Below, piece after piece: positions 46,285 to 60,627 of a stretch of DNA of 64,000 nucleotides (the stretch's first letter is position 1; each line of letters begins with the position of its first letter). Made by a program: the position numbers and the translations under genes. Location of the stretch: NCBI GenBank assembly GCA_036687665.1, contig JAYYZZ010000004.1, positions 22,330 through 86,329 of the forward strand. Direction: 5' to 3'. A model generated the notes under the pieces. That model was not told the origin of the DNA. It did not search any database and saw only the letters and a list, made by a program, of their open reading frames with translations. This DNA comes from Pseudomonadota bacterium (GTDB lineage: Bacteria > Pseudomonadota > Gammaproteobacteria > Poriferisulfidales > JAYYZZ01).

Positions 46285-47424
46285 TTAGGTTAAAAGTTCT
46301 TTTTCCATTTCGTGAAATACTTTTTTTATTATATTCAAATCGTCTTTTTCCCAAACCCATTTTTGATAAGCTGCAGCAAATACTGGTTGCTCATTTAACA
46401 CTAAGCCATTTCTTTTAAGAGCGCGAGCTTGCATTTGCGGTGAGGAACTTGGTTTTACAAACAGCGCATACCTACACTTTTTATTATACCAACATAATTC
46501 CATAGGACCATGCGCAATAGCCATGTTTAACCATGCTTCTTGGTAAAGAGCCATTCTTGTTTCAATGTTATAACTCGCTTCTAGGCAAATTGGAAACTGT
46601 TTCATCTTTTCTGGTATACCATTTTTAGCCAAGTCTATGTCGGGAACAAAGATAGGGCTATAGTTATTTTTTTGTAGATAACTTGCGAATGCTATCCAAG
46701 ACTCTAAATTACTATTACGCTCTTTCATGTAATCATATTGTCTTAAACTAATAATAATAGTTTTTCTTTTGCCAGATGTGTTTTTTATATATTCTTTTAT
46801 TTGTTGTATTTCTTCTGCACGCGCCCTAAAACAATCAACAACAGCTTGAGATGTCTTTTTTAAAGTTTGCGTTACATTGTTGGGCAGTGCACAAGGAAAA
46901 GTTAAAGAGTAAATAGATGGCAATATCGATGCTTTATCTTTGAGGAAATGTTTAATATCTGACCTGTTTTCCAACCTTGTATATGATTTGCAACTTGGTA
47001 AAAGACGAAATATCGGCACCATCATATTTTCAATTCTCCATATACGTTCACTTACGTTTACTACTGATTGGTATTCAGGCATTTCTTCTCTCACCCCATC
47101 TAACTTCCCAGGAACTATTATGGGATGTATGTGTGTGTGGCCTAACCTATGTCGATGTAAATCACATACAGCAAGCCTAGAAACTGTATCAAAGGTAACA
47201 GAGCAATATTCTAGATCAAGCACACAATATAAAGTTTTTTCTTTCTGTGAATTTTTGTTGCTGGCATACTGTTCATATATGTATGCGGCTGCGCTCCTGA
47301 GTAGCCCGGGACTTACAAGATAGAAGTACAGGCGTGAAACTAACCACCCCAACCCTTTTGTAAAAATTTTTTTAGGCACCAGTAGGGCGCGTGTTGCAAG
47401 TTCTTTTAAAAATGTTTTATGCAT
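46285..47424 (-). CDS. hypothetical protein, possibly GT-B/GT9-like
   Basis: 379 aa and first gene of the minus run. RKTIIISLRQ...ESWIAFASYLQKNNYSPIFVPD and MALYQEAWLNMAIAHGPMELCW loosely resemble the C-terminal half of heptosyltransferase-type GT-B enzymes. Weak. Confidence 0.3.
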   Translation of the reverse strand: MHKTFLKELATRALLVPKKIFTKGLGWLVSRLYFYLVSPGLLRSAAAYIYEQYASNKNSQKEKTLYCVLDLEYCSVTFDTVSRLAVCDLHRHRLGHTHIHPIIVPGKLDGVREEMPEYQSVVNVSERIWRIENMMVPIFRLLPSCKSYTRLENRSDIKHFLKDKASILPSIYSLTFPCALPNNVTQTLKKTSQAVVDCFRARAEEIQQIKEYIKNTSGKRKTIIISLRQYDYMKERNSNLESWIAFASYLQKNNYSPIFVPDIDLAKNGIPEKMKQFPICLEASYNIETRMALYQEAWLNMAIAHGPMELCWYNKKCRYALFVKPSSSPQMQARALKRNGLVLNEQPVFAAAYQKWVWEKDDLNIIKKVFHEMEKELLT

Positions 47425-47508
47425 GGAGTTAGTTCAGAATAAAATATGCTGTATACTCTAATAGACTTATGTGAAACCATTTCGTTTCTGCAAGATCGTA
47501 TTTTCTAG

Positions 47509-47514
47509 TATAAT
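47509..47514 (+). promoter_or_regulatory. candidate -10 hexamer (TATAAT) in the divergent intergenic region upstream of the SIS-isomerase operon
   Basis: Perfect TATAAT 52 nt upstream of the ATG at 47566. No convincing -35 element. Confidence 0.25.
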
Positions 47515-47565
47515 ACCATCATATTCATTGTTAATTAGGTTCCTAAAAAAGAGAGCAAATAAAAT

Positions 47566-48165
47566 ATGACAGATCAAGGAAAGAGCTTTGTATCGACTTA
47601 TTTTTCACAGTCAGCTGCTATATGTGATCAAATCGATCATGAAAAAATAGATCAGCTTGCAAATTCGCTCAAGGAGCTCAGGGAAAGAGGTGGGCGCTTA
47701 TTTATATTAGGCGTCGGAGGTAGCGCAGGGAATGCAACACATGCAGTAAACGACTTCCGCAAACTTTGTGATATCGAGTCGTACGCCCCAACCGATAATG
47801 TTTCTGAATTGACAGCGCGTACAAATGATGAAGGCTGGGATACGGTTTTTGCAGCATGGTTAAGAACTAGCAAGGCATCTGAAAACGATGCGATTCTAGT
47901 TTTCTCTGTTGGCGGCGGCAACATCGAACACAATGTCAGCATGAACTTAGTAGAAGCACTCAAAGAAGGTAAGCAACGAGGCCTGAGTATATTCGGTGTA
48001 GTAGGGCGTGATGATGGTTACACAGCTAAAGTTGCAGATGTTGCGATTGTTATACCAACACTAGATCCTAATTTAATAACACCTCATACCGAAGCATTTC
48101 ATGCTGTAGTTTGGCACTGTCTTGTTTCTCATCCAGCGCTGCAAACACACAAAACAAAGTGGTAG
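47566..48165 (+). CDS. SIS-domain sugar-phosphate isomerase (GmhA / LmbN-like)
   Basis: 199 aa. Motifs RLFILGVGGSAGNATHAVNDFRK and VFSVGGGN. Confidence 0.8.
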   Translation: MTDQGKSFVSTYFSQSAAICDQIDHEKIDQLANSLKELRERGGRLFILGVGGSAGNATHAVNDFRKLCDIESYAPTDNVSELTARTNDEGWDTVFAAWLRTSKASENDAILVFSVGGGNIEHNVSMNLVEALKEGKQRGLSIFGVVGRDDGYTAKVADVAIVIPTLDPNLITPHTEAFHAVVWHCLVSHPALQTHKTKW

Positions 48166-48179
48166 ACTTATAACTAAAA

Positions 48180-48890
48180 ATGACTACTCTAAAAATAAAA
48201 ATCTTTGCAGACGGTGCAAACAAAGAAGACATACTGAGCTTGCACAAGAATGATCAAATAAAAGGTTTTACTACTAACCCAACATTGATGAAGCAAGCTG
48301 GTATAACAGATTACGAAAATTTTGCAAAAGATATACTGACGCATATTAAAGATAGACCAATATCGTTTGAAGTTTTTGCTGACGACTTTGACGAAATGAA
48401 AAAGCAAGCTGGCATTATAAACTCGTGGGCTGAGAATGTTTATGTCAAGATTCCCGTCACAAACACAAAATCTGAATCATCTTGCCCTTTAATAAAAGAA
48501 TTGAGTTCGCAAGGTATTAAGCTGAACGTCACGGCAATCATGACAGAAGATCAGGTGAGCGCTGTTTCAGATGCATTGGATGTTGCAACACCGGCAGTTG
48601 TATCTGTCTTTGCTGGCAGAATAGCTGATACAGGAGTCGACCCAATTCCTGTAATGTCAAATTGTCTGGAGATTTTAAAGGAGAGACCAAAGGCGGAATT
48701 GTTGTGGGCAAGTCCTAGAGAGTTACTGAATGTATTCCAAGCCGACCAGATCGGCTGTCACATTATAACAGCTACCCCTGACGTCTTAAAAAAACTCACA
48801 CTTGTTTCTAAAGATTTGACACAATATTCTCTTGAAACAGTGAAGATGTTTTTTGATGACGCATCAGCAGCCGGATACTCAATAAAATAG
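48180..48890 (+). CDS. transaldolase family protein, short Fsa/TalC type
   Basis: 236 aa. Motifs GFTTNPTL, Schiff-base Lys context VYVKIPVTN, NVTAIMT and VSVFAGRIAD. Confidence 0.85.
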   Translation: MTTLKIKIFADGANKEDILSLHKNDQIKGFTTNPTLMKQAGITDYENFAKDILTHIKDRPISFEVFADDFDEMKKQAGIINSWAENVYVKIPVTNTKSESSCPLIKELSSQGIKLNVTAIMTEDQVSAVSDALDVATPAVVSVFAGRIADTGVDPIPVMSNCLEILKERPKAELLWASPRELLNVFQADQIGCHIITATPDVLKKLTLVSKDLTQYSLETVKMFFDDASAAGYSIK

Positions 48891-48920
48891 ATATATTGGA
48901 AGACTATTCAGTTAAGGAAA

Positions 48921-49925
48921 ATGTTAAATAAGGTTCTCATCACAGGTGGGGCAGGTTACTGCGGCAGTTTGCTCACACCTCAGTTATTAAAGGCGGGTTA
49001 TCAAGTCACTGTCTACGACATTATGTATTTCAGTGACAATTTTCTCCCCAAGGATGATCCAAATCTTACTGTCGTGCACGGAGACATAAGAGATATAGAG
49101 AAGTTATCTGAGGCGTTACAGGGCATGGATGCAGTTATACATTTGGGCTGCATTTCAAATGACGCCAGCTTCGAATTAGACGAGCAACTAAGCACCTCGG
49201 TGAATTTAGATGCCTTTGAGCCATTAGTTGTGGCCGCGAAAGCGGCAGGGGTACAAAGGTTTGTGTATGCATCATCAAGCTCGGTTTACGGTGTTTCTGA
49301 TGAGCCAGATGTTACCGAAGATCATCCGCTTGTTCCTTTAACTTTATATAATAAGTTTAAAGGCCTTTGCGAACCGATATTACAAGACCATACGGATGAA
49401 AATTTTGTTGGTGTTATTTTTCGACCAGCAACTGTTTGTGGGTATGGCCCTCGTCAACGCTTGGATGTATCTGTAAATATCCTTACCAATCATGCTGTAA
49501 ATAATAATAAGATCACAGTATTTGGTGGCGAGCAATTGCGTCCTAATCTTCATATTCAGGATTATTGTGATCTTTGTCAGCTTTTACTTGAATCACCTAG
49601 TGAGAAAGTTTCTCGCGAGGTATTTAATTGTGGGTTTCAAAATATGAGTATTATGGATATTGCAAAGTTGGTGAAAAAAGTTGTTGAACAAGAATATCCT
49701 GAAAAAGATAATTTGGAGATTGTTACAACACCAACTGATGATATCAGGTCCTACCATATTAACTCTGATAAAATAAATAATGTATTAGGGTGGTCACCAA
49801 AACACTCTGTCGAAGATGCAATTAAAGATCTATGTTTTGCATTTCGTAAAGGTAAATTGCCTGACAGTCTTGATGATGATATATATTTTAACGTTCGACG
49901 CTTAAAAAGAATCAATGCCGCCTAA
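48921..49925 (+). CDS. NAD-dependent epimerase/dehydratase family (extended SDR)
   Basis: 334 aa. Motifs VLITGGAGYCGS, SSSSVYG and YNKFKGLCE. Confidence 0.85.
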   Translation: MLNKVLITGGAGYCGSLLTPQLLKAGYQVTVYDIMYFSDNFLPKDDPNLTVVHGDIRDIEKLSEALQGMDAVIHLGCISNDASFELDEQLSTSVNLDAFEPLVVAAKAAGVQRFVYASSSSVYGVSDEPDVTEDHPLVPLTLYNKFKGLCEPILQDHTDENFVGVIFRPATVCGYGPRQRLDVSVNILTNHAVNNNKITVFGGEQLRPNLHIQDYCDLCQLLLESPSEKVSREVFNCGFQNMSIMDIAKLVKKVVEQEYPEKDNLEIVTTPTDDIRSYHINSDKINNVLGWSPKHSVEDAIKDLCFAFRKGKLPDSLDDDIYFNVRRLKRINAA

Positions 49926-50916
49926 AAAAAATATCGCTGTAGTCACAGGAGGTGCAGGATTTATAGGTAGTCATATGGTTGATGTATTACTGGACAATGA
50001 TTACCAGGTAAGAGTGATAGATAATTTAGTAGGCGGACGTGAAGATAATCTCACTCACCACAGTAATAACAAAAATATATCTACAGAATGGGCGGACATA
50101 AGAAACTTATCACCTGAGTCCAATATTTTTAGTGATGCAAAATATGTTTTCCATTTTGCAGGTATAGGCGACATTGTTCCATCAATAGTTTCACCAGTCG
50201 AATATATGTCTACAAATATACAGGGCACTGTCAAAGTACTTGAGTGTGCAAGGCATGCTGGTGTAAGCAAATTTATTTATGCAGCATCTTCTTCTTGTTA
50301 TGGTATTGCTGATGTACCGACCACAGAAGATCATCCAATCTCCCCTTTATACCCATACGCTATGTCTAAATACCAGGGCGAGCAAGCCTGTTTTCATTGG
50401 CATAGTGTTTATAAATTGCCTGTGAACTCAATTCGTATTTTTAATGCATATGGGACTAGGGTTAGAACTACCGGGGTATACGGCGCAGTATTCGGTGTAT
50501 TCTTTAAACAAAAATTAGCAGGAAAGCCTTATACAGTTGTTGGAGATGGTTCTCAATCTAGAGATTTTATATATGCATCAGATGTAGCAAGAGCTTTTTT
50601 AGCTGCCGCTGAAGCAGAAAGACAAGGAGAAATTTATAATCTAGGTGCTGGCGATCCACAAACAATAAATTATTTAGTCGAATTGCTCGGCGGTGAAAAA
50701 ATTTATATTCCTAAGAGACCTGGCGAACCTGATTGTACTTGGGCAGATATATCAAAAATAAAAAAACAACTTCGTTGGGAACCCAATGTATCCTTTGATG
50801 ATGGTGTCCGTATGATGTTAGAAACAATCAATGCATGGGAGGACGCGCCTCTATGGGATCCAGAGTCTATACAAGAAGCGACCGTAGATTGGTTTAAATA
50901 TATGGGTGATAAGTAG
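49915..50916 (+). CDS. NAD-dependent epimerase/dehydratase family (extended SDR)
   Basis: 333 aa. Motifs VVTGGAGFIGSH, ASSSCYG and YAMSKYQGE. 11-nt overlap with the upstream SDR. Confidence 0.85.
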   Translation: MPPKKNIAVVTGGAGFIGSHMVDVLLDNDYQVRVIDNLVGGREDNLTHHSNNKNISTEWADIRNLSPESNIFSDAKYVFHFAGIGDIVPSIVSPVEYMSTNIQGTVKVLECARHAGVSKFIYAASSSCYGIADVPTTEDHPISPLYPYAMSKYQGEQACFHWHSVYKLPVNSIRIFNAYGTRVRTTGVYGAVFGVFFKQKLAGKPYTVVGDGSQSRDFIYASDVARAFLAAAEAERQGEIYNLGAGDPQTINYLVELLGGEKIYIPKRPGEPDCTWADISKIKKQLRWEPNVSFDDGVRMMLETINAWEDAPLWDPESIQEATVDWFKYMGDK

Positions 50917-50942
50917 TTCACCCAGCACTCTTATTGCATGAT

Positions 50943-50971
50943 TTGACCTAGCACTACTACACCATTAGACT
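50943..50971 (+). promoter_or_regulatory. candidate sigma70-type promoter (TTGACC - 17 nt - TAGACT)
   Basis: Read directly in the 88-nt gap upstream of the ATG at 51004. -35 TTGACC at 50943-50948, -10 TAGACT at 50966-50971, 17-nt spacer. Confidence 0.35.
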
Positions 50972-51003
50972 TCTTCTCTCTTCATAATATTTATAGCGCA
51001 CTG

Positions 51004-52560
51004 ATGAACAACAGCCTTAAAAAGCTCTCCGAGCAATATAAACATAAGTTAGTTGATGCAAGTCAGCTAAAGAAAAATATTGGCGAGCGACCAAGAGAGA
51101 AAAAAGTCATCATGTGTCACGGTGTCTTTGATGTCGTGCATCCCGGACACTTGCGACATCTTTTATATGCAAAAAGCAAAGCAGATATTTTAGTAGCGAG
51201 CTTGACAGCAGATACACACATAAAGAAGGGAATATATCGTCCGCATGTCCCAGAGGAAATGAGAGCTTTAAATTTAGCAGCATTTGAAATTGTTGATTAT
51301 GTGTTGATTGATCAAGAACCCACTCCCTTAAAAAATATTTCTAAGTTACAGCCAGATTTTTATGCTAAGGGTTATGAATATGTTGAAGAAGGAATGCCAG
51401 TAAAAACAGAAGAAGAAGCAGAAATTATTGAAAAATATGGAGGAAAAATAATTTTCACTCCAGGAGATATAGTTTATTCATCTTCGGCTTTGATTGAGCT
51501 CGAAACGCCTGCAATAAACATAGAAAAACTGCTTGCACTAATGGAACAAGAAAGCGTGAGTTTTAATGACCTCCGAGCAATACTGGAAAAGCTTGGTAAT
51601 TTCACCGTACATATTGTTGGAGATACAATCGTAGATAGCTATACGCAAACTGCAATGATAGGCGGACAAACAAAAACTCCAACAATGAGCGTTTTATATG
51701 AAGGAAAAAAAGATTATGTCGGGGGAGCAGGCATAGTTGCAAAACACCTTGTAGCAGCTGGTGCAAAAGTCGTTTTTTCTACAGTGCTTGGTAATGATAA
51801 TTTAAAGGATTTTGTTTTAAATGATTTAAAGGAAAACGAAATAGATTGCCATGCAATTATAGACCCAACAAGACCTACTACTAATAAAAATGCAATCGTG
51901 TCATCTGGTTATAGATTATTAAAGATTGATACATTAGATAATAACTCTATAGATGATAGTGTTTTGAAAGGGTTAACCGATAAAATAAAAAATACAAAAA
52001 GTGACGCAGTTATCTTTAGTGACTTTAGGCATGGAATTTTTAATCGTCGAACAATTGAGCCCCTAGTTGATTCAATTGATGCAAAGTGTTTTAAAGCTGC
52101 TGACAGTCAGGTTGCGAGCCGCTGGGGGAATATTACTGAGTTTAAAGACTTTGATTTAATCACTCCAAATGAAAGAGAGGCGAGGTTTGCTTTAGCTGAT
52201 CAGGATTCAGGGGTTAAACCATTGGCACAGGACTTATATGACGCTGCTGGTTGTAAACTTCTGATTATGAAATTAGGTGCACGCGGAGTATTGACGTGCC
52301 GAAGTAAGGAACACGGCCTTGATGATGTTTTTGTTGTAGATAGTTTTGTTGAGAATCTTATCGATGCTGTAGGTGCAGGCGATGCATTACTAGCATATTC
52401 AACACTTACGATGTTGGCCAGTGATTCAGCAGCTATATCAACTATTATAGGCTCAATCGCAGCTGCCTGTTTATGCGAGAAAGACGGGAATATACCAATT
52501 ACGCCTACACAAGTTTTAGATAAGATTGACAATATTGAAAAATATGCGAATTTCGGTTAA
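51004..52560 (+). CDS. bifunctional cytidylyltransferase-fold nucleotidyltransferase (N-terminal) / PfkB sugar-phosphate kinase (C-terminal); HldE-like with swapped domain order
   Basis: 518 aa. N-terminal CHGVFDVVHPGHLRHL (HxGH). C-terminal half VHIVGDTIVDSY...GGAGIVAKHL...DAVGAGDALLA (RfaE domain I / PfkB signature). Confidence 0.8.
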   Translation: MNNSLKKLSEQYKHKLVDASQLKKNIGERPREKKVIMCHGVFDVVHPGHLRHLLYAKSKADILVASLTADTHIKKGIYRPHVPEEMRALNLAAFEIVDYVLIDQEPTPLKNISKLQPDFYAKGYEYVEEGMPVKTEEEAEIIEKYGGKIIFTPGDIVYSSSALIELETPAINIEKLLALMEQESVSFNDLRAILEKLGNFTVHIVGDTIVDSYTQTAMIGGQTKTPTMSVLYEGKKDYVGGAGIVAKHLVAAGAKVVFSTVLGNDNLKDFVLNDLKENEIDCHAIIDPTRPTTNKNAIVSSGYRLLKIDTLDNNSIDDSVLKGLTDKIKNTKSDAVIFSDFRHGIFNRRTIEPLVDSIDAKCFKAADSQVASRWGNITEFKDFDLITPNEREARFALADQDSGVKPLAQDLYDAAGCKLLIMKLGARGVLTCRSKEHGLDDVFVVDSFVENLIDAVGAGDALLAYSTLTMLASDSAAISTIIGSIAAACLCEKDGNIPITPTQVLDKIDNIEKYANFG

Positions 52561-52569
52561 GCGATAATT

Positions 52570-53496
52570 ATGCGAATACTGATTGTAGGTTTAGGTGTGC
52601 AAGGCTATAAAAGAAGAGACTTTGCTAACGCTGATTATGTTGCGTCAGTCGACCCAGTGAATAAAGAGGCTGATTACAAGAACATCCAAGATGTATCTTT
52701 AGATGATTTTGATGGAGCATTATGTTGTGTCCCAGATGCACCAAAAGCCCAATTAGCTAGATATCTTTTAAGCCATGGTAAACACATGCTTATAGAGAAA
52801 CCTTTGTGGACAGAAAGCGACAAAGACTTAAAGGAACTGCAAAGCATGGCAAACCAGAATAACGCTGTGTGTTATACCGCATATAACCACAGGTTTGAGC
52901 CCCACTTTATAACTATGCGTGATTTAATAAAATCAGGTGAGCTTGGAAAGATTTATTCATGCCGTATGTTTTATGGCAACGGAACTGCTTCGTTAGTAAA
53001 AGAGTCACGCTGGCGAGACAAAGGGGCAGGAGTTTTGCCTGACCTGGGTTCTCATTTACTTGACACAGCAAACTTTTGGTTTGATATAGACCGAGAGGAC
53101 TTCCTTTTACATTCTTGCAATAATTTTGAAAACGAAAGCCCAGATCATGTAATTATTGCCTCAGAATCAACACTACCAAGATTAGAATTTGAGATGACTT
53201 TGCTTTCTTGGAGAAATCATTTTACATGTGATGTATACGCCGAAAAAGGCAGTGCTCATATAAGTTCTCTTTGTAAGTGGGGGCCGTCAACATTTGTTCA
53301 TAGAAAACGTGTTTATCCTAGCGGCGTACCAGAGGAAGATGTGGTTACTTTGGAGCAGGCTGACCCGACTTGGGAGGCAGAATATATTCATTTTAAGAAA
53401 TTATGTAAAACAAAGACAAATACTGATTTAACAAATGATATTTGGATAAATCGCACTATTAGAAATTTGAGTGATATTGCAGTAGGAAAAAAATAG
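52570..53496 (+). CDS. Gfo/Idh/MocA family oxidoreductase
   Basis: 308 aa. Motifs MRILIVGLGVQG and HMLIEKPL. Confidence 0.8.
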   Translation: MRILIVGLGVQGYKRRDFANADYVASVDPVNKEADYKNIQDVSLDDFDGALCCVPDAPKAQLARYLLSHGKHMLIEKPLWTESDKDLKELQSMANQNNAVCYTAYNHRFEPHFITMRDLIKSGELGKIYSCRMFYGNGTASLVKESRWRDKGAGVLPDLGSHLLDTANFWFDIDREDFLLHSCNNFENESPDHVIIASESTLPRLEFEMTLLSWRNHFTCDVYAEKGSAHISSLCKWGPSTFVHRKRVYPSGVPEEDVVTLEQADPTWEAEYIHFKKLCKTKTNTDLTNDIWINRTIRNLSDIAVGKK

Positions 53497-54780
53497 ATGA
53501 GTTCATTAACAGTCGGCTATGCAGGAATGACCCATCTCGGTATTGTGTCAGGGTCAGTTACAGCACTGAAAGGGTTTCAGACAATTTGTTTTGATGACAA
53601 TGCTGAGCTTATAGCAGACATTAAAAATGGGAAATTACCTATAGCGGAGCCAAAAATTCAAGAGACAATTGCTTCGAATGGCACTTCTCAAGTTTTTACA
53701 CACGATCCCTCAGATTTGAAATCATGTGACATAATTTTTATATCTCCGGATGTCCCAACGGACGACCAAGGTAACAGTAGTTTAGATAATGTTCTCTCTT
53801 TGGTTAATATTGTAATATCACATATAAAAAAAGATGCAATTTTAGTTATCTTGTGCCAAGTCCCGCCCGGTTTCACACGTCAAATATCATTTAAGAAAGC
53901 ACAGCTTTATTATCAGGTTGAAACATTGGTTTTTGGCGATGCGATAGAACGTGCAACATCCCCAGAAAGAATAATAATTGGCTGCGATCAACCAGGCTCA
54001 GATCTTCCGCAAAGCTACAACAGTTTTCTTGAATGTTTTAAATGTCCAATATTAAAAATGAAATATGAGAGCGCAGAACTTTCTAAAATTTCTATTAATT
54101 TATGTTTGGTGTCGAGCATAACTGTAACTAATGCCTTGTCAGAAATTTGTGAAAAGGTTGGCGCTGACTGGGGTGAGATTATGCCAGCACTACAATTGGA
54201 TAAACGTATTGGAAAGTTTTCTTATCTGTCTCCTGGGTTAGGTTTATCTGGCGGGAATTTAGAGAGAGATCTAGTTACGGTTATAAAACTAGCAAAAGAA
54301 CATCAAACAAATGTAGATGTTATCAAGTCGTTTATTGATGATAGCGATTATCGAAAACAGTGGGCTTCTAAGATCGTAAAAAATTTAACTTCTAATACCA
54401 GCTCAAAACCTTCGATATGTATTTGGGGTCTTGCTTATAAAAAAAACACACACTCAATTAAAAATTCAGCCTCAATTGCAACGATAAAAGCACTTCAAGA
54501 GTACTTCTTTAAGGTGTATGACCCTGTTGTAAAATCTTTAGACCAGGATTTTCAAAATATCGTTTTTAGTGAAACTGCACTCGAAGCTCTAGATAAAGCT
54601 GATATTCTAATGGTCCTGACTCCATGGGATGAGTTTGCAAGTTTTGATACCGAGGAAATTTGTGAAAGAATGAATGGTGCTATCATAATTGACCCATATA
54701 AGATGCTAAATCATAATAGTGAATCGTCGTTGGATATTGACTACTACACTATTGGCGCCCATAAAGATAAAAAAGAATAA
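53497..54780 (+). CDS. UDP-glucose/GDP-mannose dehydrogenase family protein, apparently lacking the catalytic Cys
   Basis: 427 aa. N-terminal VGYAGMTHLG...NGKLPIAEP. Where the family has GfGGsC.pKD this protein reads GLGLSGGNLERD (Asn at the Cys position by eye). Its ATG directly abuts the upstream TAG stop. Confidence 0.7.
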   Translation: MSSLTVGYAGMTHLGIVSGSVTALKGFQTICFDDNAELIADIKNGKLPIAEPKIQETIASNGTSQVFTHDPSDLKSCDIIFISPDVPTDDQGNSSLDNVLSLVNIVISHIKKDAILVILCQVPPGFTRQISFKKAQLYYQVETLVFGDAIERATSPERIIIGCDQPGSDLPQSYNSFLECFKCPILKMKYESAELSKISINLCLVSSITVTNALSEICEKVGADWGEIMPALQLDKRIGKFSYLSPGLGLSGGNLERDLVTVIKLAKEHQTNVDVIKSFIDDSDYRKQWASKIVKNLTSNTSSKPSICIWGLAYKKNTHSIKNSASIATIKALQEYFFKVYDPVVKSLDQDFQNIVFSETALEALDKADILMVLTPWDEFASFDTEEICERMNGAIIIDPYKMLNHNSESSLDIDYYTIGAHKDKKE

Positions 54781-54784
54781 AATC

Positions 54785-55681
54785 ATGTTGCAACATTTAA
54801 ATGCTACACAAACAAAACCAAAAAGAGTTGTCATCATCGGCGCAAGTGGATTTGTAGGACAGTCAATACAAGAAAGATTGCAGGCGTCAGATGTAGAAGT
54901 GTTGCCCGTATCTAGTTCTGATATCAATCTTCTTGAGCCAAACAGTGACAAGCAGCTGTCAAAACTATTGCAACAAAAAGATTCTATTGTTACCGCCTCA
55001 GCTATTGCTCCTTGCAAAGACTTGTCAATGTTAAAAGACAATATCATTTTAATGGAAAATTTATTTTCAGCAGTGCAGTTAGCAAATGTTAGTCATATTC
55101 TAAATATAAGCTCAGACGCTATCTACACAGATAGCACTGAACCATTAACAGAAGACTCTGCAACATCTCCTAACTCAATACATGGGATCATGCACCTTAC
55201 TCGCGAAAGAGTGTTGCAGGATATGTTTACTGATATCCCTTGCGCAACAATAAGACCAACATTGATATATGGGGTGAAAGATCCACACAATGGTTATGGG
55301 CCAAACCAATTCAGAAGATTAGCTGCTTCAAAAAAGCCTATTATTCTGTTTGGCAAGGGCGAAGAAAGGAGAGATCATGTTTTAATAGATGATGTTGCTG
55401 AATTAGCATATAGAATTTTAATGTATAAAAGCATAGGTTCACTGAACGCGGCAACAGGTAAGGTTGTATCATTTTATGATGTCGCAGAGTTAGTAACGGG
55501 ATGTTTTGATTATTCTGTTGCCATTCAAACCTCGCCAAGGAATGGACCAATGCCACACAACGGTTACCGCCCATTTAGCGCAGAGCAAACACAACACGCA
55601 TTTTCAGATTTCACATATACACATATAGAAGACGGAATTAAAAAAGTACATACTGAAATGATGGAGAACATAGATGGCTGA
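54785..55681 (+). CDS. atypical SDR / NAD(P)-binding Rossmann protein
   Basis: Start moved to the ATG at 54785. Has VVIIGASGFVGQ, but the expected YxxxK position reads HGIMH (by eye). Confidence 0.65.
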   Translation: MLQHLNATQTKPKRVVIIGASGFVGQSIQERLQASDVEVLPVSSSDINLLEPNSDKQLSKLLQQKDSIVTASAIAPCKDLSMLKDNIILMENLFSAVQLANVSHILNISSDAIYTDSTEPLTEDSATSPNSIHGIMHLTRERVLQDMFTDIPCATIRPTLIYGVKDPHNGYGPNQFRRLAASKKPIILFGKGEERRDHVLIDDVAELAYRILMYKSIGSLNAATGKVVSFYDVAELVTGCFDYSVAIQTSPRNGPMPHNGYRPFSAEQTQHAFSDFTYTHIEDGIKKVHTEMMENIDG

Positions 55682-56333
55682 AGTAGATTTACTAAGAGCT
55701 TTACCGAAAACTAAAAGAAATATTGAAATGCGTTCTGATGCAAAAGACCCTGAGGTAATAAGGATTTCTAAGGAATATGGTGAACTTTATTTTGATGGCC
55801 CTCGCGATTATGGTTATGGAGGTTACAAGTATGATGGGCGCTGGATTCCTGTTGCGAAAGATATTGTTGAGCATTTTAGTTTAAAACCGGGCATGCGGGT
55901 TTTAGATGTTGGCTGCGCAAAAGGCTTTTTAGTAAAAGACTTAATGATTGCTTGCCCAGGGCTAGAGGTATTTGGTATTGATGTGTCCGAATATGCGCTT
56001 ATGAATTGTGAAAGCGAAGCTGTGGGACGACTTCAGATTGGAAGTGCAGATAGATTGCCATTTCCTGATGAAAGTTTTGATTGCGTACTTTCACTCAACA
56101 CTATTCATAATTTACCAAGAGAGCGTTTGATTGTTGCTCTGAAAGAGATACAGAGATTGTCAGGAGGTAAAGCATTTGTGCAGGTTGATTCTTATAGGAC
56201 ACCTGAAGAAAAAGAAATTTTTGAAAGCTGGGTGTTAACAGCAGAATTTCATGATTATCCAGATGAGTGGATTACAGTTTTCAATGAAGCCGGTTATACT
56301 GGTGATTATTTCTGGACAATAATTAATAGCTAA
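55674..56333 (+). CDS. class I SAM-dependent methyltransferase
   Basis: 219 aa. Motif I VLDVGCAKGFLVKDL and FDCVLSLNTIHNL. 8-nt overlap with the upstream gene. Confidence 0.8.
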   Translation: MAEVDLLRALPKTKRNIEMRSDAKDPEVIRISKEYGELYFDGPRDYGYGGYKYDGRWIPVAKDIVEHFSLKPGMRVLDVGCAKGFLVKDLMIACPGLEVFGIDVSEYALMNCESEAVGRLQIGSADRLPFPDESFDCVLSLNTIHNLPRERLIVALKEIQRLSGGKAFVQVDSYRTPEEKEIFESWVLTAEFHDYPDEWITVFNEAGYTGDYFWTIINS

Positions 56334-56365
56334 TTACATTATAATAACAAGAAGAGAGAACCTGA

Positions 56366-57193
56366 ATGAGCGCTAAAAATAATAATAGCTTTGATTTTAA
56401 AGCAGCAAGACAGCGCTGCATGAAATTCAGACGCCGCATACTTGATATTTCGCAAACTGTTGTTGCTCTGCATATTGCTCCTGCTTTCTCATGCTTGGAG
56501 GTTGTAGATTTAATCTACCATGGTCTTATGCGTGAAAATTCTTCTGCTCACAAAGATGCTTTTTTAATGTCCAAAGGCCACGGATGTATGGCACAGTATG
56601 TTGTACTAGAAGAGCTTGGCGTGCTAAGCAATGATGATCTTGGTAAATATTGCACACCCGAGGGAATTTTAGGTGCACATCCTGATTATGAGACACCAGG
56701 GATAGAAGCAGCAACAGGTTCTTTAGGTCATGGTCTTTCCATGGCAGTTGGTATGTCTTATGCAGAAAAAATCAAAGGGACAGACAGCACCATCTATACA
56801 GTATTAAGTGATGGTGAAGTGCAAGAAGGCTCAACTTGGGAAGCTGTTCTTATGGCATCCACTTTTAATACCACAAATCTTATTGCATTTGTAGATTATA
56901 ACGATTTTCAAAGTTTGGGCAGGACAAGTGAAACTCACCCAACTTTTTACCCATTAACGGATAAATTTGTAGCATTTGGTTGGGAGTCTGTTGAAGTGAA
57001 TGGACACAACGCCGAGGAAGTTTATGCAGCAGTTCAGCAAAGAAAAGGAGACAAACCTTTAATGATTGTCTGTAAAACAATAAAAGGACGAGGGGTAAGT
57101 TATATGGAAAGTGTTCCGATATGGCACTATCGTGCGCCGAATGCAGAAGAGTATGAGCAGGCTATTAATGAATTAAAAGAGATATCATCATGA
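56366..57193 (+). CDS. transketolase, N-terminal (ThDP pyrophosphate-binding) subunit
   Basis: 275 aa. Motifs GHGLSMAVGM and LSDGEVQEGSTWEA. Confidence 0.88.
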   Translation: MSAKNNNSFDFKAARQRCMKFRRRILDISQTVVALHIAPAFSCLEVVDLIYHGLMRENSSAHKDAFLMSKGHGCMAQYVVLEELGVLSNDDLGKYCTPEGILGAHPDYETPGIEAATGSLGHGLSMAVGMSYAEKIKGTDSTIYTVLSDGEVQEGSTWEAVLMASTFNTTNLIAFVDYNDFQSLGRTSETHPTFYPLTDKFVAFGWESVEVNGHNAEEVYAAVQQRKGDKPLMIVCKTIKGRGVSYMESVPIWHYRAPNAEEYEQAINELKEISS

Positions 57194-58104
57194 GAAATAA
57201 GTTTGCTGATACCCTTTATAAGTGCGCTGTTGAGGATTCGGACATAGCAATTGTTGTCGCAGATATTTCTCCGGCAGGTAGTATGGAAAATTTTAGACAA
57301 GAGTTCCCGCATCGTTTTTTAAATGTAGGTGTTGCAGAGCAGTCTATGATTGGAATCTGCGCAGGAATGTCTTTAAGAGGGTTGCAACCTTTTGCTTACA
57401 CTATTGCAACCTTTACATTGTATCGTCCTTTTGAATTTGTGCGTGACGATCTGTGCTACCAAAACTTACCTGTTACGATTGTCGGCGTAGGCGGCGGTGT
57501 AGTTTATTCAACTCTTGGAGGAACGCATCATTGCCAGGAAGATGTTGCGATAGCTAGCGCAATCCCTAATATGTCTGTAATAGCTCCTTGTGATCCAGAA
57601 GAAGCCGAGGCTGCAACTAAATACTGTGCTGTTCAAAAAAATGGTCCCATTTATTTGCGTTTAGGTAAAGCTGGAGAGCCTACTCTTACAGCCAACGCTG
57701 ATACTCCGTGGGAATTTGGAAAGATACGTTATCTTCAGAAGGGTAACGATGTTTGTATTTTGAGTTACGGTATCATTATGAAAAAATCTCTTGAAGTTGC
57801 ACAAACACTTGAAAAACTTGGCAAGTCAGTTTCTCTAGTTTCAGTCCATACCGTGAAGCCTTTAGATATACCAGGCATAGAGACTGCACTGTCAGCACAT
57901 TCAGAAGTTGTTGTTATCGAAGAACATGCACCATCTGGAGGTTTGAGTCACAGAGTGAAAGAAGTTGCGTGGAATATGCAAGCTTCTTGCAAGCTGCATA
58001 CTTTTACCTTGCAAGACCGTTTTTTACATAATTACGGGGATCATGATGATTTATTAGCAGCGCACGGGCTTTCTGTGGATAAGATAGTTGCTGGAATAAA
58101 ATAA
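57190..58104 (+). CDS. transketolase, C-terminal (pyrimidine-binding) subunit
   Basis: 304 aa. Motif FLNVGVAEQSMIGICAGMS. ATGA overlap with the N-terminal subunit. Confidence 0.88.
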   Translation: MRNKFADTLYKCAVEDSDIAIVVADISPAGSMENFRQEFPHRFLNVGVAEQSMIGICAGMSLRGLQPFAYTIATFTLYRPFEFVRDDLCYQNLPVTIVGVGGGVVYSTLGGTHHCQEDVAIASAIPNMSVIAPCDPEEAEAATKYCAVQKNGPIYLRLGKAGEPTLTANADTPWEFGKIRYLQKGNDVCILSYGIIMKKSLEVAQTLEKLGKSVSLVSVHTVKPLDIPGIETALSAHSEVVVIEEHAPSGGLSHRVKEVAWNMQASCKLHTFTLQDRFLHNYGDHDDLLAAHGLSVDKIVAGIK

Positions 58105-58105
58105 C

Positions 58106-59326
58106 CTACTTCATTAACTTCATAATTTCATCAGAAATATGTTGGCTCAGAGGGAACGAGCACGTGAATGCGGGAGAAACAGCGTTTAGTAAATGAAAAG
58201 ATTTATCATCCCCTTCGTATACAAAATCCATTTCTAAACTATTATCATTTGTGTTTAACAGTTGCGCACGTATCGCAGGTCTTCCCCATTTTAAAAAATC
58301 TGAACTATTAACATCATTTACCATTTTTGAAGCCAGCTGTATGAGGTACTCTTTTGAGTATTTCTTCATTTCTTCTAACGCAAGACCACGAAATTGATTC
58401 TTATTTGCCAAAAACATCTCACTTTGTGCCTTTATAATGTTCATAAATTCTTTAGCACTAAAGTTTTCTACGCCCTTGTAGTGCTCTTTCCAAAATGCTG
58501 GAATAGCAGTCGGGCCAATTTTCGCGCTCCCTTCTAATGTGACTGTAAAATGCACACCAAGAAAAGGTTGATCGATATTTGGCACAGGATAAATGTTGGT
58601 TTTTAACCAACCAGGTTTTTTCTTAAGGTAAAGATATAGACCCTTAAAAGGCATGATCATGTAGTTTTTAGAGAAACCGTAATCTTTTGCAATTGTGTCT
58701 GCATGCAATCCTGCACAATTTACAAGGTAGCCGTATTCAACTGAACCTTTCGAAGTATTAATTTTATTTTTACTTCTTCCAACGTATTTTGTTTCTAGCA
58801 TCAAAGAAATATCAGCATCTAATATGTCTTTTTTTAGTGATTTCATGACGGAGACAGGATTGACTGTGGATGTGTTGGGGGAATACAACGCTCTTGAAAA
58901 TGTTTTTACTTTTGGTTCTATTTTTTTTGCCTCATCTTTAGAAATTATCTCTACGCTTACCCTATTTCTTTTTGCTCTTTCTTCCAAAGTGTCAAGAACA
59001 AGTTCTTCTTCTTCGTTTTGTGTAACAACAAGTTTGCCACATTTGTTGATACCAATATTCTTTTCTTCACAATATTTACGCAAGGCTTCGTTTCCGTCAC
59101 GCGTGAATTGGGCTTTTAGTGAATCTTTTGTATAGTAAAATCCTGCGTGCAGAACTCCGCTATTTAAACCACTGGCATGCTGATAAATATCATTTTCTTT
59201 TTCAATAATGAGAATTTTTGCTGTGGGTATTTTTCTTTTCAATGCATGGGCGATACTTATACCCATTACTCCAGCACCAATAATTACAAAATCAGTATAC
59301 TTAGGCGGTTGGTCCAATTGTGGCAT
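58106..59326 (-). CDS. lhgO: L-2-hydroxyglutarate oxidase/dehydrogenase family FAD oxidoreductase
   Basis: 406 aa, collinear by eye with E. coli LhgO: DFVIIGAGVMG, NSGVLHAGFYYTKDSLKAQF, PFKGLY, PFLGVHFT, GPTAIPAF and IRAQLL. Confidence 0.8.
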   Translation of the reverse strand: MPQLDQPPKYTDFVIIGAGVMGISIAHALKRKIPTAKILIIEKENDIYQHASGLNSGVLHAGFYYTKDSLKAQFTRDGNEALRKYCEEKNIGINKCGKLVVTQNEEEELVLDTLEERAKRNRVSVEIISKDEAKKIEPKVKTFSRALYSPNTSTVNPVSVMKSLKKDILDADISLMLETKYVGRSKNKINTSKGSVEYGYLVNCAGLHADTIAKDYGFSKNYMIMPFKGLYLYLKKKPGWLKTNIYPVPNIDQPFLGVHFTVTLEGSAKIGPTAIPAFWKEHYKGVENFSAKEFMNIIKAQSEMFLANKNQFRGLALEEMKKYSKEYLIQLASKMVNDVNSSDFLKWGRPAIRAQLLNTNDNSLEMDFVYEGDDKSFHLLNAVSPAFTCSFPLSQHISDEIMKLMK

Positions 59327-59334
59327 AGTTCTTA

Positions 59335-60627
59335 TTAGAGACGTATAAGCTCTATTTCTTCTGGTTTATCTTTTCTTGGCAATTTCGACATGACATCAAA
59401 TACAATGCCGTTTTTATTGTTCACAAGCATTTTCATAGCTTCCCATCCTCCGTCTATATATTCTTGATGCGCTACAGCAAGCAGGACTAAATCTGACGGA
59501 GCTAAGGCATCATAGACAGTCATATCCATTTTATATAACTTCTTTACCTCATTTGTGTCAGCTAGTGAGTCATGTATTTGAATATTGCACTTTTTTTGAT
59601 CTAAGAATCGATACACATCTAATACTTTGCTGTTTCTGAGGTCCGGCACATTTTGTTTAAAAGTAAGCCCAAGTATTATAATTTGGCTGTCTTTTGCAGC
59701 TTTCCCTTTGTTTTCCAGATGGTCGATGATCTGCTGACCAACAAGGTCTCCCATTTCGTCATTAATACTTCTGCCCGACAGAATGACTTTGGGATTGTGT
59801 CCTATTTTGTTTGCCTTATACGTTAAGTAATAAGGGTCTACTCCAATACAGTGCCCGCCTACTAAACCTGGTTTGAAATTAGAAAAATTCCATTTTGTTG
59901 CTGCTGCCTCAATTACATCAGTAGTATCTAAACCCATTTTTTTACAAATTATTGAAAGCTCATTCATTAGCGCAATATTCAGATCTCTTTGTGTGTTTTC
60001 AATTACTTTTGCTGTTTCTGCGATCCTTATACTGCTAACCATATGAGTGCCAACAGGTATAATAGATTGGTATAAGTGATCGACATATTTAGCAGCCTGA
60101 TCATTAGAGCCGGAAGTGACTTTTACTATATTAATTATTCTATGGTTTTTGTCTCCAGGGTTTATTCTCTCAGGACTATAACCAACTAAAAAATCTTCAT
60201 TTATTGTAAGGTTTGAAGAAGCTTCTAGTATTGGTATGCATATTTCTTCAGTCGCACCCGGGTACACAGTCGATTCATAAATGACAAGATCCCCTTTTTT
60301 TATGATGCTTCCTACTGTTTTGCTGGCAGATTTGACTAAACTTAAATCTGGATGTTTATTTTCATCTATTGGTGTTGGAACGGTTATTATATAGATATCC
60401 GAATCGCGAATGTCTTCAGCATTGTTAGAAAAAATTAGCTTTTTTGCAGATTTAATATCAGAAGAGCCAACTTCATTTGTGCTATCCTGATTCAACTTTA
60501 AATTATTTATACGCTGCTCATTAATATCATAACCAATCGTTTTTGTCCTTTTTCCAAATTCTACAGCGAGTGGTAGCCCAACATAACCGAGGCCGATAAT
60601 TGATATTTTTTTTTCTGTTATTTCCAC
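59335..60627 (-). CDS. nucleotide-sugar 6-dehydrogenase, TviB/WbpO/CapL-like
   Basis: 430 aa. Motif ISIIGLGYVGLPLAVEFGK. Catalytic Cys retained in GLVGGHCIGVDPYYL. Confidence 0.88.
   Translation of the reverse strand: MEITEKKISIIGLGYVGLPLAVEFGKRTKTIGYDINEQRINNLKLNQDSTNEVGSSDIKSAKKLIFSNNAEDIRDSDIYIITVPTPIDENKHPDLSLVKSASKTVGSIIKKGDLVIYESTVYPGATEEICIPILEASSNLTINEDFLVGYSPERINPGDKNHRIINIVKVTSGSNDQAAKYVDHLYQSIIPVGTHMVSSIRIAETAKVIENTQRDLNIALMNELSIICKKMGLDTTDVIEAAATKWNFSNFKPGLVGGHCIGVDPYYLTYKANKIGHNPKVILSGRSINDEMGDLVGQQIIDHLENKGKAAKDSQIIILGLTFKQNVPDLRNSKVLDVYRFLDQKKCNIQIHDSLADTNEVKKLYKMDMTVYDALAPSDLVLLAVAHQEYIDGGWEAMKMLVNNKNGIVFDVMSKLPRKDKPEEIELIRL

Follow-up and report, generated by a model that had tools for sequence, protein, structure and literature searches.

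What would a transketolase that is divided between two genes be doing at the end of a surface-glycan operon? The question is raised by positions 54785-58104 (plus strand) of a 64-kb stretch of contig JAYYZZ010000004.1 (assembly GCA_036687665.1), referred to here at its full length as the window. Four open reading frames (ORFs) occupy these positions. They encode an atypical extended short-chain dehydrogenase/reductase (SDR) of 298 aa (54785..55681), a class I S-adenosylmethionine (SAM) methyltransferase of 219 aa (55674..56333), and the two halves of a split transketolase, namely the N subunit, TK-N (275 aa, 56366..57193), and the pyrimidine-binding and C-terminal subunit, TK-C (304 aa, 57190..58104). 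Judged from its residues and its gene company, TK-N/TK-C is most likely a tailoring enzyme of a nucleotide-sugar pathway, having the transketolase fold and depending on thiamine diphosphate (ThDP), rather than one that serves the pentose phosphate pathway. More specifically, we give a probability of roughly 0.6 to the reading that it would transfer a two-carbon (C2) ketol unit onto an oxidised nucleoside diphosphate (NDP)-heptose or NDP-octose, which would then be methylated.

The Split Transketolase and Its Pocket

The first-pass annotation of this DNA had recognised a transketolase split into ThDP-binding and pyrimidine-binding subunits, and the Pfam domains confirm it. TK-N matches Transketolase_N (PF00456) at 4e-32, with weak matches to E1_dh and DXP_synthase_N, and TK-C matches Transket_pyr (PF02779) at 8e-30 and Transketolase_C (PF02780) at 6e-22. 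In NCBIfam the split enzyme scores at best 208 and 176 bits, where the cut-off is 488, with TK-C scoring 161 bits with the Dxs model against 176 with the transketolase model, and all four proteins of the module fall below every NCBIfam equivalog cut-off. The closest structures in the PDB are 6yak for TK-N (4.5e-44), which is the N chain of the split transketolase of Carboxydothermus hydrogenoformans, and 6yaj for TK-C (2.9e-48). The host genome carries a separate full-length TktA frame (690 aa, Transketolase_N E 8e-163) and also encodes Dxs. This makes the split enzyme an additional paralogue and not the housekeeping transketolase, nor is it the only transketolase of the genome.

The residues of the pocket were compared, with E. 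coli TktA numbering, in an alignment of the window protein, 11 family members, and the genome's own TktA and Dxs. Kept are the ThDP/cofactor site and the histidines by which the donor is held at its C1/C2 end (His26, His66, His100, Gly114, Asp155, Asn185, His261, Glu411, Phe437 and His473), and the window protein shares the four donor-site histidines (His26, His100, His261 and His473) with its 11 relatives. The equivalent of Arg358 is retained as Arg2 of TK-C. Four other residues are replaced, His461 by Gly, Asp469 by Leu, Ser385 by Ala and Arg520 by Lys, and each of the 11 aligned family members shows exactly the substitutions of the window enzyme, while the host's own TktA is canonical. In the yeast and E. 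coli transketolase structures, the residues replaced here bind the substrate phosphate and the C2 hydroxyl of the acceptor. The sugar-phosphate-binding pocket is remodelled, and the enzyme does not carry the canonical transketolase residue set. The donor side is different. Where the split enzyme keeps His100 and His261, Dxs of the same genome carries Phe and Tyr, so that the donor half-site is of the transketolase (glycolaldehyde) type and not of the pyruvate type.

Family, Phylogeny and Gene Order

The family to which the split enzyme belongs is large. A search with TK-C among 1.84 billion cluster representatives (clusters at 50% identity) gave 1498 matches at E <= 1e-30. Among the best 150 of these 1498 representatives, Gly stands at the His461 position in 110 of the 117 near-full-length relatives. 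Phylogeny had been suggested in the first-pass annotation as a check of the split enzyme against TktA, and in the tree the TK-C relatives indeed branch far from both TktA and Dxs. TK-C of the window type forms a supported clade (support 0.94-0.99) marked by the motif ADISPAGSM. In the contexts sampled for other clades, SDR, methyltransferase and radical-SAM genes lie near the TK-C relatives. Of about 186,000 species genomes, 377 hold relatives of TK-N, and many more such relatives are found in metagenomes. Homologues with 61-95% identity are spread over Nitrospirota, Alpha-, Beta-, Gamma- and Deltaproteobacteria, Myxococcota, Acidobacteriota, Verrucomicrobiota, Bacteroidota and Chloroflexota. 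Among the carriers in culture are Thalassobaculum litoreum, T. fulvum, strain BAL199 and three Bradyrhizobium strains; copies of the window type are found at 64-67% identity in Bradyrhizobium strains other than ORS285, a strain that is discussed below.

The split transketolase travels with a conserved series of genes. The order is an SIS isomerase, in some loci a HAD phosphatase, a transaldolase, a first SDR (SDR1), a second SDR (SDR2), a fused nucleotidyltransferase/kinase, a Gfo/Idh/MocA oxidoreductase, a protein resembling UDP-glucose dehydrogenase (UGDH-like), the atypical SDR (named HGxMH SDR after its motif), the methyltransferase, TK-N and TK-C. The gene order of the window is repeated in loci L007 and L008 and in most of 80 species loci. 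Where 9 kb or more of upstream sequence is available (56 species loci), the methyltransferase is present in 93%, SDR2 in 91%, SDR1 in 89%, the Gfo/Idh/MocA gene in 86%, the UGDH-like gene in 82%, the transaldolase in 80%, the nucleotidyltransferase/kinase in 79% and the HGxMH SDR in 77%. The co-occurrence of the split transketolase with methyltransferase and SDR-like genes, another check that had been proposed, is thus borne out by the first and the last of these figures.

The departures from this order are also informative of what accompanies the enzyme. Loci L019, L059 and L080 are without the trio of Gfo/Idh/MocA, UGDH-like and HGxMH SDR genes, the Bradyrhizobium copies are without the HGxMH SDR, and locus L009 has no SIS and no transaldolase gene nearby. 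In 17 of the 80 species loci (e.g. L017:8966-9955), the methyltransferase and TK-N flank an additional, 4,6-dehydratase-like SDR; this SDR is 34% identical to the gdh product of ORS285, and it adjoins the transketolase genes as gdh does in that strain. In T. litoreum DSM 18839 (L054), the chromosomal site at which related strains carry the full operon holds only SDR1, SDR2, HGxMH SDR, TK-N, TK-C, an SDR and a UGDH; distant homologues of the nucleotidyltransferase/kinase (31%) and of the methyltransferase (48%) are found on another contig of that genome.

Kinship with the Bradyrhizose-Linked Operon

A link to a known sugar comes from Bradyrhizobium ORS285, in which insertions in gdh lead to loss of the O-antigen, a polymer built solely from bradyrhizose, a bicyclic sugar of ten carbons (Busset et al. 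2016, PMC4743980). The gene gdh lies in an 11-gene cluster that is conserved in six photosynthetic strains, and the genes for bradyrhizose were otherwise unknown according to the 2016 report (PMC4743980); no later paper on bradyrhizose biosynthesis was found among the literature searched. The gdh primers of Busset et al. had no match in the first 89 related loci. In a scan of the genus Bradyrhizobium, one genome gave an exact primer match, and an exact protein look-up identified it as ORS285. Its cluster contains, in this order, a nucleotidyltransferase/kinase, an NTP-transferase, a Cj1427-like SDR, an SIS gene, gdh, TK-N and TK-C, followed by a zinc-dependent alcohol dehydrogenase (Zn-ADH), a 204-aa protein that matches no family, an APH-like kinase and a methyltransferase of class I.

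When the window proteins were compared with ORS285 by tblastn, seven genes were found within 10 kb at 25-46% identity, and Pfam agrees with the assignments. The identities include 30% for the nucleotidyltransferase/kinase, 46% for SDR1, 33% for SIS, 45% for the methyltransferase, 39% for TK-N and 41% for TK-C. The core that is shared comprises SIS, the nucleotidyltransferase/kinase with reversed domain order, the Cj1427-like SDR, a second extended SDR, the class I methyltransferase and the split transketolase. The split transketolase of ORS285 (CCD83613/CCD83614), directly after gdh, has the same Gly, Leu and Lys substitutions in the pocket as the window enzyme. Its operon has the NTP-transferase, the Zn-ADH, the APH-like kinase and the 204-aa protein as extras and, unlike the window, is without a transaldolase, a Gfo/Idh/MocA gene, a UGDH-like gene and an HGxMH SDR. 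On these comparisons, the window operon is a sister type of the ORS285 operon and not its orthologue, because the transketolases are 39-41% identical, TK-C of ORS285 falls in a separate clade of the tree and the accessory genes differ. The gdh mutation of ORS285 may be polar, and the tie to bradyrhizose is a genetic one at the level of the operon.

The carbon count of bradyrhizose would fit a C2 transfer followed by methylation. According to a review, hemiacetals of free bradyrhizose form through OH-4, OH-5 or OH-9, from which it follows that C4 is quaternary and bonded to C9 and that C4-C9 make up a carbocycle. Seven carbons of a heptose, two of a ketol unit and one of a methyl group would add up to ten, the position of the tenth carbon being assumed. 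A hydroxyacetyl unit bridging C4 and C7 would give a six-membered ring that is oxygenated throughout.

Proposed Pathway and Partner Enzymes

From the genes of the operon we infer the order of steps, the acceptor, the donor and the product as follows. The SIS isomerase (the first gene of the operon, starting at 47566, plus strand) and the nucleotidyltransferase/PfkB kinase (51004-52560, plus strand; domains in the reverse of the HldE order), both assigned by Pfam and NCBIfam, would build an NDP-activated heptose or octose, with or without the help of the transaldolase (48180-48890, plus strand; TAL_FSA family by Pfam/NCBIfam). The sugar would next be oxidised by SDR1 (48921..49925, plus strand), a likely NDP-sugar C4 dehydrogenase of the Cj1427 kind, and by the UGDH-like protein (53497-54780, plus strand; Pfam/NCBIfam). 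Dihydroxyethyl-ThDP would be formed on the split transketolase, the donor being an ordinary 2-ketose (for instance xylulose 5-phosphate or fructose 6-phosphate) or possibly hydroxypyruvate. The C2 ketol would then be added to a carbonyl of the oxidised NDP-sugar, most likely to the ketone at C4, which would become a tertiary alcohol bearing a hydroxyacetyl branch; alternatively, a terminal aldehyde would be attacked and the chain made two carbons longer. The adjacent methyltransferase would methylate the product, plausibly at the carbon beside the new ketone, and the HGxMH SDR-like protein would process the new keto group or aid in ring closure.

The best PDB match of SDR1 is 6vo6/6vo8 (4e-35, over the full length and ten orders of magnitude ahead of the next), which we take to be Cj1427. 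Cj1427 oxidises GDP-D-glycero-D-manno-heptose at C4, and 2-oxoglutarate regenerates its NAD+, giving L-2-hydroxyglutarate (PMC10680097). SDR1 and the 4,6-dehydratase-like SDR inserted in some loci are both of types that are predicted to make 4-keto NDP-sugars. The UGDH-like protein reads SGGNLERD where 4a7p has GGSCFPKD, so its catalytic Cys is replaced by Asn. Judging by UDP-glucose dehydrogenase mutants, this replacement should stop the oxidation at the aldehyde. The protein might halt there, or might act as the dehydratase partner of the adjacent Gfo/Idh/MocA protein. With SDRs that form 4-keto sugars and a Cys-less UGDH-like protein, ketone and aldehyde acceptors would both plausibly be on hand.

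The first-pass annotation had read the catalytic YxxxK pair of the atypical SDR as replaced by HGIMH, and this holds. The protein (Pfam Epimerase, 4e-24) has the Rossmann motif GASGFVG and the serine of SSD, with HGIMH where YxxxK is expected. Full-length alignment places HGIMH on YGVSK of 3m2p and on YAIAK of GDP-fucose synthase 8du0, putting His-x3-His on Tyr-x3-Lys; Tyr and Lys are truly absent, and no normal YxxxK is found. About 60 orthologues, which retain the GxxGxxG and SSD motifs, share HG[VMI]MH, and this marks it as a conserved substitution and not decay. The protein could be a non-redox helper of SDR fold, for example a cyclase or an isomerase. The class I methyltransferase was also correctly called, with matches to Methyltransf_11/25 at 1e-15 (1e-15 to 1e-11 for Methyltransf_11/25/31) and to Methyltransf_12 and 23. 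Its best PDB match is weak (6uv6, a D-glucose O-methyltransferase, 9e-9). In related loci it is 60-79% identical and usually ends less than 200 nt before TK-N.

The transfer itself has a precedent in Rif15a/b of Amycolatopsis mediterranei, a two-subunit transketolase of rifamycin biosynthesis, in which both subunits are needed and the activity depends on ThDP and Mg (PMC6002545). In vitro, Rif15a/b transfers a C2 unit from fructose 6-phosphate, xylulose 5-phosphate, ribulose 5-phosphate, sedoheptulose 7-phosphate or dihydroxyacetone to the C4 ketone of rifamycin S (PMC6002545). A fragment of rif15b, machine-read with errors from the supplement of PMC6002545 and aligned by eye, reads ...SVGASYDDP..LGPTHQ, with Gly/Leu at the positions of His461/Asp469; the rif15b product begins with MRTVFAE and contains ADIS, and TK-C of the window likewise has an MR- start and the ADIS motif. 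No Rif15b-like sequence was found among the best 150 TK-C representatives.

Weighing the Alternatives

The split enzyme might, instead, be a dedicated transketolase of the pentose phosphate type that works with the transaldolase to supply sedoheptulose 7-phosphate or octulose 8-phosphate to the SIS isomerase, kinase and nucleotidyltransferase. This was one of the two roles that the first-pass annotation had proposed for the ThDP enzyme, the other being the direct branching or extension of a sugar. A transketolase, a transaldolase, a GmhA-like isomerase and an HldE-like enzyme do stand in one operon, and Arg358 is kept and Arg520 replaced by Lys. The main point for such a supply role is that the transaldolase of the operon is the sole TAL_FSA match in the small host genome (86% complete), where it may also serve the central metabolism of a streamlined cell. 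We nevertheless hold this role to be improbable, and favour the direct building of the sugar, because the phosphate-binding residues are replaced (the equivalents of His461, Asp469 and Ser385 being gone in every member), a canonical TktA is present in the same genome, clusters that have no transaldolase (ORS285, L009) still contain the split transketolase, and it travels with enzymes making 4-keto NDP-sugars. Moreover, it stands at the far end of the operon beside tailoring genes, and its tightest partners are the methyltransferase and the NDP-sugar SDRs, not SIS or the transaldolase.

The histidines of the donor site bear on a second alternative, in which hydroxyethyl-ThDP derived from pyruvate would be added to an NDP-4-ketosugar and the resulting acetyl branch reduced by the SDR-like protein, following the logic of YerE and YerF. 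His100 and His261, which contact the C1 hydroxyl of the donor, are kept where the genome's Dxs has Phe/Tyr, and Rif15, whose pocket signature is alike in the partial rif15b reading, takes 2-ketose donors. An acetyl branch is thus also improbable, even though TK-C scores nearly as well with the Dxs model, TK-N has weak matches to E1_dh and DXP_synthase_N, and enzymes of the E1 alpha/beta and YerE types branch keto sugars with pyruvate (PMC12247030, PMC9306805). Another possibility turns the reaction around, transketolase chemistry being reversible. The enzyme would cleave the alpha-hydroxy-ketone side chain of an NDP-ketosugar, for example a 6-keto-8-deoxy-octose from an LmbL/LmbZ-like step, with the C2 unit removed or relocated. 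The Gfo/Idh/MocA and Cys-less UGDH-like genes precede the module, and we presume that the pair resembles the lincosamide 6,8-dehydratase pair, which would yield an acyloin. However, the split transketolase persists in clusters without the pair (L019, L059, L080 and ORS285), and bradyrhizose carries more carbons than a heptose, not fewer, so that chain shortening or rearrangement appears very improbable.

Several points weigh against C2 transfer onto an oxidised NDP-sugar, the reading preferred here. With Arg358 kept and Arg520 changed only to Lys, some phosphate binding may remain, and with the sole TAL_FSA of the genome in the operon, the neighbouring genes may have a role in metabolic supply. 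The likely assignment of SDR1 as Cj1427-like comes from one PDB match, taken to be Cj1427. In the window clade, the C2-transfer function is argued from sequence and from the analogy with Rif15, and the likeness of the rif15b pocket to that of the window protein counts as suggestive because of the reading errors and the alignment by eye. For miharamycin and amipurimycin, split transketolases have been proposed to place a hydroxyacetyl branch on a keto sugar; the knock-outs were without the expected substrate, and the branching has never been shown in vitro (PMC12247030). Lastly, the "minimal" cluster of T. litoreum is weaker evidence than it appears. As proof that the transketolase needs no heptose front end it has been downgraded, since homologues of the nucleotidyltransferase/kinase and the methyltransferase lie elsewhere in that genome.

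Operon Structure and Neighbouring Genes

The four-gene unit is the tail of an operon of 11 co-directional genes that begins at 47566 and is conserved in order; it is not autonomous. That the module closes a plus-strand sugar operon, as had been read at first pass, is borne out, the seven upstream genes spanning 47566..54780 on the same strand. Between the genes placed above stand SDR2, a 4-epimerase-like protein that lies between SDR1 and the nucleotidyltransferase/kinase, and the Gfo/Idh/MocA oxidoreductase, which lies between the nucleotidyltransferase/kinase and the UGDH-like gene (both on the plus strand, by Pfam and NCBIfam). The ATG of the atypical SDR is 4 nt past the stop of the UGDH-like gene. 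The four genes had been described as one translationally coupled unit. The overlaps of 8 nt (SDR and methyltransferase) and 4 nt (ATGA, TK-N and TK-C) are real, but a 32-nt spacer, purine-rich in part, lies between the methyltransferase gene and TK-N, so that two of the three junctions overlap. A promoter and terminator scan of 47000-59500 gave counts not above those of shuffled sequence, and so says nothing about the limits of the operon.

Downstream, an LhgO-type gene (58106..59326, minus strand) is convergent with the operon, its stop 1 nt from the stop of TK-C. It matches the NCBIfam model of L-2-hydroxyglutarate oxidase at 325 bits against a cut-off of 299. As a possible accessory, LhgO could recycle the L-2-hydroxyglutarate that a Cj1427-type dehydrogenase gives as a by-product. 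A search of 83 related loci for homologues of LhgO gave none, so that its link to the operon is weak, and recycling by LhgO was dropped as a conserved feature of the cassette.

The gap between the SIS gene and the transaldolase gene is 14 nt in the window (48165-48180), and 39 related loci carry the HAD phosphatase there (e.g. L007:2254-2820). A 30%-identical, GmhB-like gene is found elsewhere in the host genome (contig C1:59869-60327). The host is gammaproteobacterial, as its CTP synthase shows, with an assembly of 918 kb in 4 contigs, a genome of about 0.9-1.1 Mb and 37% G+C. Surface-glycan genes take up much of the 64-kb window despite the small, streamlined genome.

Significance

The branching of nucleotide sugars by ThDP-dependent enzymes is established only for enzymes of the YerE and E1 types. 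Branching by the transketolase fold is a proposal, which in the literature read is confined to 13 Streptomyces sequences; these 13 candidate split transketolases of a 2025 review are all from Streptomycetes and from secondary-metabolite clusters (PMC12247030). The literature searched gave no paper that links a split transketolase to a polysaccharide, or a transketolase and a transaldolase to an octose and a nucleotidyltransferase. The clade described here is large, tied to surface glycans and present in culturable Thalassobaculum and Bradyrhizobium. Since the pocket signature is shared with the enzyme of the bradyrhizose-linked operon, the biosynthesis of bradyrhizose becomes testable with a defined set of enzymes. 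The family further suggests that uncultured bacteria have a class of higher-carbon surface sugars that has not yet been described, and it offers candidate biocatalysts for functionalised tertiary alcohols.

A broader generalisation can be put forward tentatively, and we consider it possible rather than probable. The Cj1427-like dehydrogenase, the split transketolase and the methyltransferase might together be the core of a route in which the transketolase fold forms a carbon-carbon bond on a nucleotide-activated heptose or octose. With an enzyme forming a terminal aldehyde (the Cys-less UGDH-like protein here, the Zn-ADH in Bradyrhizobium) and an intramolecular aldol reaction, the route would lead to C-branched or carbocycle-fused higher sugars. 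If this were true, sugars of the bradyrhizose kind would be made by hundreds of species in many phyla, including a streamlined gammaproteobacterium.

Comparison with Known Systems

Known systems resemble the window operon in different parts and to different degrees. At the front end, Coxiella burnetii CBU0678 has the same reversed order, nucleotidyltransferase then kinase, as the window gene, and is essential for phase I lipopolysaccharide (PMC5843353). Its neighbours are annotated as a phosphoheptose isomerase (CBU0674) and epimerases (CBU0676/0677) (PMC5843353). The two are likened by domain order and description.

YerE had been named in the first-pass annotation as the precedent for two-carbon branching on a nucleotide sugar. 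With YerF it makes yersiniose A, and ErwE and MygE are YerE-like (PMC9306805). As a functional analogy the comparison stands, and only as such, because YerE is a single-chain enzyme of the decarboxylase (acetolactate-synthase-like) ThDP family with 2-oxo-acid donors, whereas the window enzyme has the transketolase fold, with domains of the transketolase, E1 and Dxs families only and no ThDP fold of the decarboxylase family. Transketolases encoded by split genes are closer. Erwiniose and caryophyllose were set aside as models for the product of the operon, as they are made by YerE-type enzymes on a hexose.

Among the split transketolases, that of Carboxydothermus hydrogenoformans (6YAK/6YAJ) has the same split architecture and is the closest solved structure for both subunits. 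Unlike the window enzyme, it retains the canonical residues ATHAG...GEDG...RLGR, and it is thus a normal transketolase in two pieces. The split transketolases of miharamycin and amipurimycin, compared by description only, follow an oxidoreductase that is expected to make the keto sugar, and the reaction proposed for them is the one favoured for the window enzyme. Rif15 differs from the window case in its host, an actinomycete with an antibiotic pathway in place of a surface glycan, and in its acceptor, an ansamycin quinone whose adduct rearranges to an ester with a C-O bond. In Rif15, as in the window, the N and C halves of the transketolase are encoded by overlapping genes inside a biosynthetic cluster.

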